Assembly: GCA_951406725.2 (NCBI GenBank)
Contig: OX597820.1
Location: forward strand, 930,001-994,000
From: Octopus vulgaris
Lineage: Eukaryota
DNA: 64,000 nt
Direction of reading: 5' to 3'
Part shown: positions 127-45,345 of the stretch, piece after piece
Layout: the number at the start of each line of letters is the position of its first letter
Position numbering within the stretch: the stretch's first letter is position 1
Notes under the pieces: model-generated
Databases searched by the model: none
Told to the model about the DNA's origin: nothing
The model's input: only the letters and a program-made list of their open reading frames with translations
Program-made: the position numbers and the translations under genes

Positions 127-335
127 GGCGGCGAGCGGGCAGAATCATTAGCACGCCGGACAAAATGCTTAACCGCATTTCGTCCGTCTTGACTTTCTGA
201 GTTCAAATTCCGCCGAAGTCGATTTTACTTTTTATCATTTTGAGGTCGATAAAATAAGTACCAGTTGTGTACTGGGGTCGAGGCAATTGACTTGCCCCCT
301 CTCCCGAACTTGGTGGCCTAATGCCAGAATTTGAC
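127..335 (+). mobile_element. tRNA-derived SINE, family A (GGCGGCGAGC(T/G)GGCAGAATC...GAGTTCAAATTCCGCCG...GTACCAGT)
   Basis: Pol III B-box-like GAGTTCAAATTCC. Similar copies at 10066-10270(+), 29511-29720(+), 33272-33478(-), 36624-36741(-), 62798-62985(-), three adjacent copies at 20900-21510(-), and a partial at 1-68(-). Confidence 0.85.
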
Positions 336-12887: not shown

Positions 12888-13315
12888 GGCGCAAGAATGG
12901 CTGTGTGGTTAAGAAGCTTGCTTTGCAGCCATTGGGGTTTCGGGTTCAATCCCAATGTGTAACACTTCGAGCAAGTGTTTTCTGCACGGAGTCTTCCAAT
13001 GCCTTGTGAATGCATTTGGTTGAGAGAAACTGTGTGGAAACTGTGTGGAAACCCATCAGCTATATGTGTGTGTGTGTGTGTGCGTGTGTGTGTGTGCGTG
13101 CGTGTGTGTGTGTGCGTGTGTGTGTGTAATTGTCTAATTGTCCCACACTGCTTGACAACTGGTGTTACTTTGTATATATTCTCGTAACACAGCGGTTTGG
13201 CAAAGAGCCGAAAGAGTATGTATCAAACTGGAAGAAGGGGTTGATTTGTTCGACTAAAATCCTTCAATGCCATACCGTAGCATGGCCGCAGTCCAATGAC
13301 TGAAACAGGTAATAG
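12888..13315 (+). mobile_element. SINE family B, full length
   Basis: Head TGGCTGTGTGGTTAAG..GGGTTCAATCCC through tail GCATGGCCGCAGTCCAATGACTGAAAC. Confidence 0.8.
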
Positions 13316-17535: not shown

Positions 17536-18393
17536 GGATCTTTTCCTTTTGAACGGCACTTTGTAACATAATTTCTAGGTAACTAAAAAGTTTTAAACTT
17601 TGTATATTGGTAGAATATGTTTATAAAACATCATTTTCTCTTGGCTTTATTGAGAAAATTCTATAGTTTGTAAGATATTTCGTCTGAAATTATTGGATTT
17701 CGGAAATTTTAACCAATCACTGGAGTCCATTTAGGTAAATAACATTCTGTGCATAATGAATATGTCCCTCCTTTAAGAAACAGATTGGGTTTATTTACAT
17801 TTGTGAAGAAAAAATATACCCTTCCACCACCCCTAACCCTAACCCTAACTAACCCTAACTAACACTAACTCACCCTAACTCTAACCCTAAATCTAAAATA
17901 GATTGAAATGCAATAGATCGATACTAGGATTATAATTATGGGTGACAATTTCATACGACACCACTACGGAAAATGGGATTTTTTCCTAGCGGTGTCAAAT
18001 GAAAATGTCACCCATAATTATGGCCCTAGTATCGATCTATTGCATTTCAATATATTTTAGATTTAGGGTTAGAGTTAGGGTTAGTTAGGGTTAGGGGCTG
18101 GGGAAGGGTATCTTTTTTTCTTCACAAATGTAAATAAACCCAATCTGTTTCTTAAAGGAGGGACATATTCATTATGCACAGAATGTTATTTACGTCAATG
18201 GACTCCAGTGATTGGTTAAAATTGCCGAAATGCAAGTAATTTCAGGCGAAATATCTTACAAACTATAGAATTTTCCCAATAAAGCCAAGAGAAAACGATG
18301 TTTTATAAACACATTCTACCAGTATACAAAGTTTAAAACTTTTTAGTTACCTAGAAATTATGTTACAAAGTGTTGTTCAAAAGGAAAAGATCC
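17536..18393. mobile_element. Foldback non-autonomous DNA transposon with internal telomeric repeats
   Basis: Ends GGATCTTTTCCTTTTGAAC ... GTTCAAAAGGAAAAGATCC. Exact 8-bp TSD AACACTTC at 17528-17535 and 18394-18401. Arms of about 420 bp pair almost to the centre (~17975). CCCTAA-type repeats at 17831-17890, TTAGGG-type at 18063-18096. Confidence 0.9.
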
Positions 18394-25317: not shown

Positions 25318-25355
25318 CATAAATTAATCAAAATAAAAACATGATGCCAAGGATT

Positions 25356-25437
25356 CAGCGGTACATATGTTTCGGGCCTTTATTAGACGGATTTATAACA
25401 ATGCATAATGTGTGTCTATGGCCCTCTTCAGCAGCGC
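25356..25437 (-). ncRNA. Hammerhead-like motif with extended stem II
   Basis: Minus strand: CTGAAGA-GGGCC-A-TAGAC...GTCTA-ATAAA-GGCCC-GAAA-CATATG-TA. Palindromic stem III ACATATGT. Stem I only partly paired. Confidence 0.55.
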
Positions 25438-25845
25438 ACAATTACATATATATGTAATTTCCTTGTCATCATTTATCATCCAATTTCCAATGCTTGCATG
25501 AGTCAAATAGTCAGATAGAAATTTATTGAGGTAGATTTTTTCTATAGCTGGATGCTCTTCCTGACACCAACCTTCCCCTGATTCCAAGCAAGGTAATATT
25601 CTCCATGGCCAGACAAATTTTAATGGAAGACTGGAAATAAACAACATTGCTTGTATGGCAATGGAGCTCATTTATAGCCATCGTGGGATGTCTAGACAGA
25701 GGACAGGCAGAAACACACACACACACACACACACACAGGCACATACACATACATATGATGATTTTCTGCTAAATCCACTCACAAGGCTTTGGTCAACCCA
25801 TGGCTATAGTAGATTAGAGAGTTTCCACACAATGCAACTGAACTC

Positions 25846-26122: not shown

Positions 26123-26469
26123 CATTATTTACATTATTTACATTTGACGGATATTTGTCGGATATACCCTCCAGCCTTCATCAGGTGTCTTGGGGGAAAT
26201 TTCGAACCTAAGGTATTTTTCGATGTTATTATTATTGGAATCGAACTCGGAATCTTGGCGTTAGTAGCCCATGCTCTTAACCACTAGGCCATATGCCTGT
26301 AATATTCTCCTATCCTTCCTTAATACCGGTTCCCATATGCTGTTCATATCTGCACTCGATCTGCTTAGGAGGTTGTTGTGTCCTAGCATATGTGCTGCTG
26401 CTTTTAGTTTTCGTATTTTCCACTGGTGTTCTCTGTCTATTATTTTAACTTCATCCCACATATAGAACT
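26123..26469 (-). mobile_element. 5'-truncated Penelope-like retroelement: GIY-YIG C-terminus + tRNA-like segment + partly deleted hammerhead
   Basis: 12-bp direct repeat GTCCTCAGATTG at 26111-26122 and 26470-26481. Minus ORF WDEVKIIDREHQWKIRKLKAAAHM...LSR...IWEPVL resembles PLE GIY-YIG C-termini. A/B boxes at 26237-26297. CTGATGAAGGCTGG at 26171-26184. (TGTAAATAA)n tail. Confidence 0.8.
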
Positions 26470-36293: not shown

Positions 36294-36748
36294 ACTTTCT
36301 CCCACATTCTTTCTATCTACATATGTATAATTCTGCCTGCTTGTCTGTGGAGTACTCAGCCACACTGTATGCCAATCCAATGAGTAAGTTGATCAATTGA
36401 TCACACTGTTGGCTGCTCATGTTACTCTCTGTGGGAGACAAAGAGAATCCCCATCATACATAATGTCTGTGTGTCTGTCAGTTCCAGCATTAAACAGGTC
36501 CCCTTACCCTTTTCACACTCATTCCCGTCTTTCTTTATTCGACTCTTTGCTGCTCCCTGTCCCTTTTTTTTTACCCTTTTCCAACAAGCTGTAGTCTACT
36601 AGTGCTCCGTCTACGATGACAATTTCAAAATTTGGCACAAAGCCAGCAATTTTGAGGGAGGGGTTGGGTTAGTTACATAAACCCCAGCATTCAACTGGTA
36701 CTTATTTTATCAACCCCAAGAGAATGAAAAGAAAAGTCAATTATTCAT

Positions 36749-36853
36749 ATTATTTACATTTGACGGATATTTGTCCTCATCTTGTTTGTTGTTAACACAA
36801 CGTTTTAGCTGATGTACCCTCCAGCCTTTATCAGGTGTCTTGGGGGAAATTTC
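36749..36853 (-). mobile_element. 5'-truncated copy of the tRNA-hammerhead PLE repeat (core mutated)
   Basis: GACAC-CTGATAA-A-GGCTG...CAGCT-AAAA-CG-TT-GTGTT and the same downstream tail as 40735-41013. Confidence 0.8.
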
Positions 36854-40734: not shown

Positions 40735-40906
40735 CAGTTCTATATTCAAGAAATGAGGAATTATTTACATTATTTACATTCGACGGATATTTGTCCTCAT
40801 CTTGTTTGTTGTTAACACAATGTTTCGGCTGATATACCCTCCAGCCTTCATCAGGTGTCTTGGGGAAATTTTGAAACTGGGTTCTCATTCCTAAGGTATT
40901 TTTCAA

Positions 40907-40947
<41 letters not shown>

Positions 40948-41013
40948 TCACTGCCTGGAATCAAACTGGTAATCTTGGGTTAGTAGCCCGTGCTCTTCAC
41001 CACTACGCCATAT
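40735..41013 (-). mobile_element. Stand-alone tRNA-headed hammerhead repeat (solo PLE pLTR / SINE-like unit)
   Basis: Minus strand: ATATGGCGTAGTGGTGAAGAGC...AGTTTGATTCCAGGCAGTGACC, (AAT)n linker, hammerhead, then TGTAAATAA repeats and ...ATATAGAACTG. Confidence 0.8.
40814..40859 (-). ncRNA. Minimal type-I hammerhead ribozyme
   Basis: GACAC-CTGATGA-A-GGCTG(GAGGGTATAT)CAGCC-GAAA-CA-TT-GTGTT. Canonical core and 5-bp stem II. Stem III reads ACAT here and ACGT in the 36.8-kb copy. Confidence 0.75.
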
Positions 41014-44066: not shown

Positions 44067-44968
44067 TAATAATAATAATAATAATAATAGTAATTGTGTA
44101 CAGTGCTCAGGTGCACTACAACTCATCTAAAGTGTATATATAATCAGGTGTAGTTTCGGCGGATTTCGGAAAGCATGAGGGCCTTAAAAGATGCAGTGTC
44201 ATGGCAGTCAACAACTGACGCAGGCAGTTTATTCCATGCTTCAGCAACTCTGAGCGTGAAAAAATGTTTCCGAAAGTCATGGGAGCTGTATTGTTTTCTG
44301 ACTTTGTAGGCATGTCCACGTGTGTTAGACACATGGAGATCAAAAAGGTGTTCAGTGTTGTTGTTGGTGAGGTGGTTGATAACTTTGTGGGTGTTTACCA
44401 AGTCCGTCGCCAAACGCCGGAGCTTCAGTGAATCCATGCCCAGGGAAATAAGGCGCTCAGAATATGGTAGGTGTCTGATGGAGGGTATGCGTTTGGTTGC
44501 ACGTCTCTGGACAGATTCCAGGAGGTCAATGTTCTGTGCAATATAGGGGTTCCAAACTGATGATGCGAATTCCAAGTGTGGTCGTACCATAGCTGTATAC
44601 AGTTTTAAATAGATGGCTGGAGAGCGGCTAACAAAAGACCTGCTGAGTGATGCCAAGACACCCTCGGCCTTCCTGACAATCTTAGAGATATGCTTTGACC
44701 AATGCAAATCACTGCTGACAGTGATGCCTAGGTCACGCTCGCAAGAGGATTTCTTGATATCAGTGTTGTGGAGGGAGTATGTGAACGCAGGGTTTTTTCT
44801 CCCAAAATGCATGGTGGTACACTTGTCCACAGCCAGTTTCAGTTGCCAGTCTGTGATCCATTGCTGCATTGTGTCTAGGTCTGATTGCAGGAAAGAGTTG
44901 TAGACATCAGGATCTGTCCTCTTGATTTCAAGGTACAGCTTGATGTCGTCTGCATATTTCAATAGCAA
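44067..44968 (-). mobile_element. 5'-truncated CR1-type LINE with 3' UTR and (TTA)n tail
   Basis: RT ORF at 44144-44968, followed by a short UTR ...AGTTGTAGTGCACCTGAGCACTGTACACAA and (TAT)n. Confidence 0.92.
44144..44968 (-). CDS. Reverse transcriptase C-terminal portion of CR1-type LINE ORF2 (274 aa, uninterrupted, no true start)
   Basis: YADD, LQSDLD...W, KCTTMHFG, ERDLGITV, LYTAMVRPHLEFASSVWNP, LESVQRRATK, YSERL, TRGH, FFTLRV...WNKLP. Confidence 0.9.
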   Translation of the reverse strand: MLLKYADDIKLYLEIKRTDPDVYNSFLQSDLDTMQQWITDWQLKLAVDKCTTMHFGRKNPAFTYSLHNTDIKKSSCERDLGITVSSDLHWSKHISKIVRKAEGVLASLSRSFVSRSPAIYLKLYTAMVRPHLEFASSVWNPYIAQNIDLLESVQRRATKRIPSIRHLPYSERLISLGMDSLKLRRLATDLVNTHKVINHLTNNNTEHLFDLHVSNTRGHAYKVRKQYSSHDFRKHFFTLRVAEAWNKLPASVVDCHDTASFKALMLSEIRRNYT

Positions 44969-45345
44969 TGGTCCCCAATCTTTTCACTACTGAGGACCCC
45001 TTTTATTTAAATGAGTTTTCCCACAGATCCCTTTTAATATACTTATCCTTATGTATATATATTATATATGAGAAAAATTATATTAATGTGTCCTACTTGT
45101 TAAAATTCTATTTATTCATTTGTGCAGCTGAAGATAGCACTGCATTTAAACTGACGTAATGATTGCATTGTTCAATTAAATGGTGCCACATGAAATGGTA
45201 ATACTGCATCACTACATGATATCCTGTTGCTTATTTTGATTTTATTCACCTAACTTCATGCTGTGTGGATAATACCGGACTGACTTGGTGCTTCAACTTA
45301 AGTACCTAATTTAACTGAATCTCAGTTATTTCTTTATATATATAC

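Follow-up and report, generated by a model that had tools for sequence, protein, structure and literature searches.

The question raised by positions 40735–41013 of the window (the whole 64,000-nucleotide stretch of Octopus vulgaris DNA that was analysed, positions 930,001 to 994,000 of contig OX597820.1) is whether a short repeat with a tRNA-like head and a hammerhead core is a SINE or retrozyme in its own right that depends for its movement on the enzyme of a Penelope-like element (PLE) acting in trans, as the original prediction held. The unit is a decayed end repeat (pLTR) of an abundant protein-coding PLE, and not a separate small element. Read from 41013 down to 40735 on the minus strand, it consists of the tRNA-like head, (AAT)n, a CTGATGA-A-GGCTG...CAGCC-GAAA core and a 3' segment (Table 1); signed positions below follow the family numbering, in which +1 is the first base of the tRNA-like head. 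Its 5' end corresponds to tRNA position +5. Neither an inverted partner nor a target-site duplication was found at its flanks, and the copy belongs to the unpaired minority of arms. It had been described as having no ORF sequence; this description does not hold, because the first 51 codons of the element's ORF, its N-terminus, are open in it. The copy itself is probably inert.

Table 1. Features of the unit at 40735–41013 and of its sibling copies in the window
Feature	Position	Strand	Remarks
Solo pLTR of Penelope-like element	40735..41013	-	+5..+265 of family consensus; 92% (head) and 96% (3' part) identical
tRNA-Arg(ACG)-derived head	40944..41013	-	Acceptor and anticodon stems decayed
A box, intact	41000..41010	-	From sequence
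B box with C56>T damage (CpG decay) here	40957..40966	-	Intact in consensus
(AAT)n microsatellite, length variable	40911..40943	-	Separates head from ORF start
First 51 codons (from ATG) of RT/GIY-YIG ORF, through ribozyme	40736..40888	-	Open frame
Minimal type I hammerhead	40814..40859	-	Core with bulged A; stems I, II and III of 5, 5 and 2 bp
Predicted GUU triplet	Cleavage expected between 40819 and 40818	-	Within 40814..40859
Stem III palindrome position	40820..40823	-	ACGT in consensus, ACAT (broken) in this copy
PLE 'tail' of ~25 nt	40735..40759	-	Between 3'-end classes +230..241 and +263..265
5'-truncated pLTR copy (+128..+241), short 3' end	36739..36853	-	ACGT kept; core G8>A, G12>A
ORF C-terminal end (26302-26460) joined to pLTR	26124..26460	-	-198..+240

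The three copies noted within 15 kb were all recovered, spanning 14.9 kb; the one at 26124–26460 carries three internal deletions, one of which removes the 3' half of the ribozyme. The unit is not a product of chance, since a 20-mer taken from it has 7,481 exact matches in the 2.8-Gb genome and its reversed control has 0. The family is estimated at ~23,000 arms genome-wide, which is likely to be a lower bound because the samples, anchored on exact words and drawn mostly from contig C1, are biased to young copies.

The consensus of the parent element, obtained by an upstream walk through genomic copies, holds one 835-aa frame composed of 783 body codons and 52 codons in the unit. The frame starts at an ATG at +112, continues across the ribozyme and has a stop codon that ends at -29. 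One genomic copy gives an RVT_1 match (E 1e-10), the C-terminus of the element can be aligned with the part of P0015 that Pfam assigns to GIY-YIG, and the ribozyme-encoded peptide at the ORF N-terminus is conserved in the database homologue P0005 (57% identical). In a Pfam search of the element's own pieces, including two genomic copies, GIY-YIG was not called directly. No intact ORF was found among the genomic loci examined, the longest open frame being 362 aa. In long copies the unit lies both after the ORF and directly before it; in 61 of 90 loci chosen by junction word it directly precedes the ORF body, and exact junction words number 148. With direct pLTRs at these loci, inverted pLTRs in 57 head-to-head pairs among 157 arms, a single RT ORF, a C-terminal GIY-YIG, a one-sided tail and a pLTR hammerhead where the ORF begins, the element has the structure of an EN+ PLE (C-terminal endonuclease). 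From its architecture, it is tentatively assigned to the Penelope/Poseidon clade.

Two younger PLE families (L283–L312 and L313–L342), with copies 97–100% identical, have long 3' regions and, preceding the endonuclease, a CxxC linker; the consensus of one family, which may have been recently active, gives an open frame of 784 aa. Elsewhere in the window, a 279-codon open frame with an RVT_1 match at 44144–44983 (minus strand), which served as a control, is presumably a CR1/L2-like LINE remnant, judging from its motifs, and positions 17536–18393 form a long, MITE-like inverted repeat with arms of ~290 nt that are 91–96% complementary.

The anatomy of the insertions was analysed in a 3'-anchored sample of 0.72 Mb from contig C1 and the window. 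The 3' ends of 182 arms fall mainly at two sites ~25 nt apart, +230..241 (95 arms) and +263..265 (67 arms); none of the 182 lies at the predicted cleavage site, and no poly(A) or simple-repeat 3' tail occurs in any of them. Head-to-head pairs include 114 of 157 arms, and 46 of the 57 pairs combine one long with one short 3' end. Target duplications of 7–13 bp, present in 13 of 29 pairs, surround the pair as a whole; among single arms one was seen in 1 of 11, and it was not adjacent. For the duplication count, 40 insertions were kept after removal of those with simple-repeat or edge flanks and of L135, a duplicate of L132 (L131 and L132 are possibly non-independent); at least 7 flank bases are shared in 14 of the 40, compared with 1.4 after shuffling. 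Inverted pLTRs with a tail are the pattern described for PLEs in the available text of PMC8557442. At the sequence level, the two 3'-end classes and the inverted pairs are a PLE signature, and the mobilisation by a PLE enzyme that had been proposed is supported. The tandem monomers typical of retrozymes were not found, the copies being dispersed singles and inverted pairs with one short tandem (L257).

A sharp peak of 5' ends at the tRNA start, as originally predicted, is evident from several counts. Exact 16-mers occur 9,796 times at +109, 5,993 times at +30, 1,108 times at -27 and 846 times at -125, which corresponds to a 5.4-fold drop across the head start and a 1.3-fold drop over the next 98 bases. 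Among 45 arms reaching +6, 31 have their 5' end at -6..+6, where the stop rate per base is 0.09, as against 0.002–0.005 in ordinary stretches and 0.015–0.017 in the repeat or beside this wall of ends. Starts at -6..+5 were also found in 18 of 30 head-anchored loci, whose insertions are partly shared with the arm sample, and 9 of the 38 junctions listed have their landing point at +32 or earlier. At L242, L259, L260 and L350 the template jumps directly from an ORF piece exactly to G(-5); these four junctions have no inverted context, and the jumps fit an RT reaching the end of its template. A palindrome at -6..+5 favours fold-back and blurs the ends in inverted pairs, apparent ends at -6, -13 and -16 being fold-backs on it. 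Longer RNAs must have existed, since 14 of the 45 arms extend past the wall and one (L344) of eight upstream pLTRs reaching the head runs on into the ORF end. The wall probably represents the 5' end of the RNA.

Two further features were seen at the junctions. At L259, L260, L358 and L399 the ORF piece ends at the identical body position 234, possibly a third priming or RNA end site. At L242 and L378 an A-rich run of ~12 bases separates the ORF 5' piece from the next pLTR arm, as if RT had jumped onto an oligoadenylated RNA end.

The head at which the wall stands was aligned from +1 with 11 distinct tRNA-Arg(ACG) genes of the same genome, giving 48–51 identical positions (~50/74) and z of 7.6–9.7 relative to shuffles; the comparison was confined to the Arg-ACG genes and one Ser gene. 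The family thus has, like SINEs, a tRNA-derived 5' head with A and B boxes, which are kept in the consensus though the tRNA stems have decayed; both boxes fit their consensus in 40 of 71 head-start arms, and the B box is damaged in the copy at 40735–41013. ARAGORN called no tRNA at the head, and in relaxed mode gave only implausible intron-containing calls. RNase P cleavage at +1 was considered and rejected, as the acceptor stem is not formed. A tandem cluster of ~20 tRNA-Arg(ACG) genes lies on contig C2 at 211.89–211.91 Mb. Other abundant repeats with tRNA-like A/B-box heads, at 12898, 37406 and 57605 (plus strand) in the window and in repeat families D19/D20, are likely to be ordinary SINEs unrelated to the unit.

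The hammerhead of the family consensus shows the complete set of features given for minimal PLE hammerheads in the available part of PMC4209133. Of 137 arms, 70 keep an intact core and 46 of these also have ACGT, and the only common non-CpG core variant affects the free position 7. The ribozyme is nevertheless damaged in all three window copies. At 40735–41013 the full core and the 5-bp stem II are kept, as had been noted, but the ribozyme is not intact, its stem III position reading ACAT; the ACGT palindrome reported for the 36.8-kb copy is present there. Rfam did not call a hammerhead at the 40735–41013 core, and folding energies are uninformative: the ribozyme region of this copy folds with z of -1.0, and the minimum-energy folds for monomer and dimer lack the active form. 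The predicted cut falls after +181. Among pooled arms, from which 10 of 489 with internal deletions and those starting before +98 or after +219 were dropped, 24 have 5' ends at +180..186, compared with 9.7 expected, and few end just upstream. Since other intervals reach 21 and the pool is not unbiased, this excess only hints that the RNA was cleaved there or that the RT stalled on the fold. As for the suggestion of a dimer-type minimal hammerhead, such a ribozyme is found in the consensus; the dispersed head-to-head pairs, however, form no cis dimer because the two ribozyme halves lie on opposite strands. Dimerisation is possible only for an element with two direct pLTRs, or between two RNAs. 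A second hammerhead-like core in the window (25331–25440, minus strand; CTGAAGA, 4-bp GC stem II, long loop, GAAAC) is probably the end repeat of a different PLE.

On balance, the unit is best read as a solo pLTR produced by an RT that started internally and ran off at the RNA 5' end, which was likely set by Pol III about 5 bases before the head. With a fair degree of probability, the A and B boxes would serve Pol III as an internal promoter of type 2, and the polymerase, meeting no TTTT, would be able to read through the 2.5-kb ORF. By analogy with anole Poseidon in vitro, the element protein would nick both target strands and prime two cDNAs, at +240 and +265; joining of these cDNAs at their far ends would give the inverted pairs. 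Priming at the first pLTR–ORF junction would yield the 270-nt copies and priming at the second the ORF-bearing copies. The hammerhead would be a dimer-type or protein-assisted ribozyme, presumably dispensable for insert formation because most arms span it uncut. A bolder version, which we offer only tentatively, is that the element reads from a captured tRNA-Arg Pol III promoter, that its 2.9-kb terminator-free RNA is both message and template and yields full elements as well as SINE-like solo copies by the ten thousand, and that fossil 5' ends mark hammerhead cleavage in vivo.

Pol III transcription is likely because most copies stop at the start of the tRNA-derived head. The position of G(-5), at a pyrimidine–purine step and 13 nt upstream of the A box, is one at which Pol III would usually be expected to start. 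The same element and the same run-off could instead involve an RNA started at -5 from a Pol II promoter in the pLTR, the tRNA head being a passenger left behind when a SINE or tRNA inserted long ago. This is unlikely, though it has a precedent: in D. virilis Penelope and Chlamys-3, the two PLEs whose starts have been mapped, transcription begins within the pLTR from a promoter that overlaps a spliceosomal intron, that is, by Pol II (PMC8557442, in the part available). A protein-coding RNA also normally requires a cap. Against a passenger head stand the position of the start and the retention of both boxes while the tRNA fold was lost. The 2,909-nt consensus unit contains no TTTT, a modest depletion with P = 0.04 under the strictest null (synonymous shuffle), 0.015 with Phe codons redrawn, 0.05 under a first-order Markov model and 0.0045 under a base shuffle, which the Pol II reading can accommodate at the strictest value; GGGG is likewise absent (P = 0.28). 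Two control PLE families of the same genome, which have no detected head, retain 8 TTTT in 2,064 and 6 in 2,352 coding bases (P = 0.003), though they also encode more Phe (35–36 against 19 in the element). In addition, no extra untemplated G occurs at the four direct -5 junctions, a weak point against Pol II. In terms of sequence, the TTTT depletion and the kept boxes are suggestive of Pol III. The reads of four sequencing runs showed presence only and contained no pile of ends; in one RNA run (other species label, fragmented cDNA), from a kind of library that cannot reveal a start, raw reads were equal in both directions, were mostly part of other transcripts, and in 79% ran into unrelated sequence. 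The wall might also reflect stalling or fold-back of RT at the palindrome on a longer RNA rather than an RNA end. The inverted pairs at L074, L140, L185 and L192 are perfect fold-backs centred on it, and the 3' foot of the hairpin, at +4..+6, is where 9 of 100 arms terminate; a hairpin stall, however, predicts a stop at +5/+6 and not at -5, direct jumps reach G(-5) without inversion, and unpaired arms stop at the wall as well, which makes this explanation improbable.

Equally improbable is the original idea of an independent tRNA-headed SINE or retrozyme that is transcribed from solo copies and moved in trans by the PLE enzyme. Head-start copies do outnumber ORF-linked ones by ~5 to 1, 40 of the 71 head-start arms keep both boxes, a solo copy with the tail could in principle serve as template, and repeats with a tRNA promoter and a hammerhead are known in schistosomes (PMC6765202). 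However, a distinct non-autonomous lineage is not apparent: when 71 head-start arms were compared with 47 ORF-linked arms, 0 of 237 columns differed after correction, and the unit is a pLTR with 51 ORF codons. The minor variants occur at equal frequency in the two sets (24/68 and 16/45, 15/69 and 9/43, 15/71 and 8/46 in head-start and ORF-linked arms, respectively), so that short and long copies stem from the same masters; median non-CpG divergence is 3.5% in head-start and 4.6% in ORF-linked copies. A SINE-type 3' tail with a duplication around a single unit was not found, nor were 3' ends at the cleavage site or tandem monomers. The template of Poseidon_Ac, moreover, needs ORF sequence beyond the priming site (PMC11167929, available text), which solo copies do not have. 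Of the Pol III transcript retrotransposed in trans, a likely Pol III start thus survives and the separate trans-acting SINE does not: the unit is the pLTR of an autonomous element.

For annotation, units of this kind will be filed as tRNA SINEs despite being PLE ends. Three tRNA-derived octopus retroposons were reportedly described by Ohshima and Okada in 1994; they would resemble the unit in being tRNA-derived and of high copy number. The short form may already be catalogued as a SINE, in that work or in a repeat library. If the proposed reading is true, a PLE under a tRNA promoter would break the split between autonomous Pol II and non-autonomous Pol III elements, and would offer a direct route for the birth of SINE-like repeats from a PLE end repeat. 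It would also raise the question of how an uncapped RNA is translated, as uncapped Pol III RNA is expected to be translated poorly. The thousands of fossil ends agree with the two-site internal priming seen in vitro for one PLE, and the agreement is testable in genomes. A literature search, whose reach stopped short of Repbase, Dfam, SINEBase and Albertin et al. (2015), found no PLE with a tRNA head or a Pol III promoter; a prior description is possible.

Among known systems, the closest are PLEs of the Penelope/Poseidon type (Poseidon_Ac, green anole). The octopus element shares with them a single RT and C-terminal GIY-YIG ORF of ~835 aa, direct and inverted pLTRs, a one-sided tail from two RT start sites, an ORF start at the hammerhead, insertion of uncut RNA and AT-rich targets (PMC11167929; PMC8557442). 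The available text of PMC11167929 describes Poseidon_Ac as initiating internally at two sites, cutting both strands at AT-rich positions, starting its ORF at the ribozyme and inserting RNA that has not been cut. The octopus element differs from it in its tRNA-derived A/B-box head, the wall of 5' ends there and the lack of TTTT, and its tail is ~25 nt, compared with 30–40 in Poseidon_Ac (PMC11167929); a tRNA-derived head is not mentioned for PLEs of this type in the available portions of the two reports (PMC11167929; PMC8557442). With the minimal PLE hammerheads (Cervera and de la Pena, 2014; PMC4209133, available part), which are weak and dimer-dependent in vitro, the octopus hammerhead shares a 5-bp helix I, a bulge between 9 and 10.1, G10.1–C11.1, a palindromic 15.2–16.2 and many single or opposite-strand copies 100–700 bp apart; it differs in its 5-bp helix II and GUU triplet, and is known here from its sequence.

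Small-RNA-derived promoters and hammerheads also occur in elements of other kinds. On the usual view, Pol II transcribes autonomous retrotransposons and a Pol III head marks an element as non-autonomous (PMC10886601). In the TRIMp3 elements Cassandra, Helenus and Ajax a terminal repeat contains a Pol III promoter derived from a small RNA, as proposed for the octopus element, but they are non-autonomous LTR elements without an ORF, whereas the octopus element is an ORF-bearing PLE (Kojima, 2024; PMC10886601, in the part available). In the schistosome SINE-like repeats Sm-alpha and Sj-alpha, as in the octopus unit, a type I hammerhead comes after a promoter of Pol III type; according to the available text they are tandem and non-coding, whereas the octopus unit is an end repeat with an ORF start, arranged in inverted pairs (PMC6765202). 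Non-LTR retrozymes share the type I hammerhead and a kinship with PLE pLTRs; as far as the available text describes them, they are tandem repeats cut to monomers and circles, an arrangement from which that of the octopus unit differs (PMC7229834; bioRxiv 10.64898/2026.07.22.740005).
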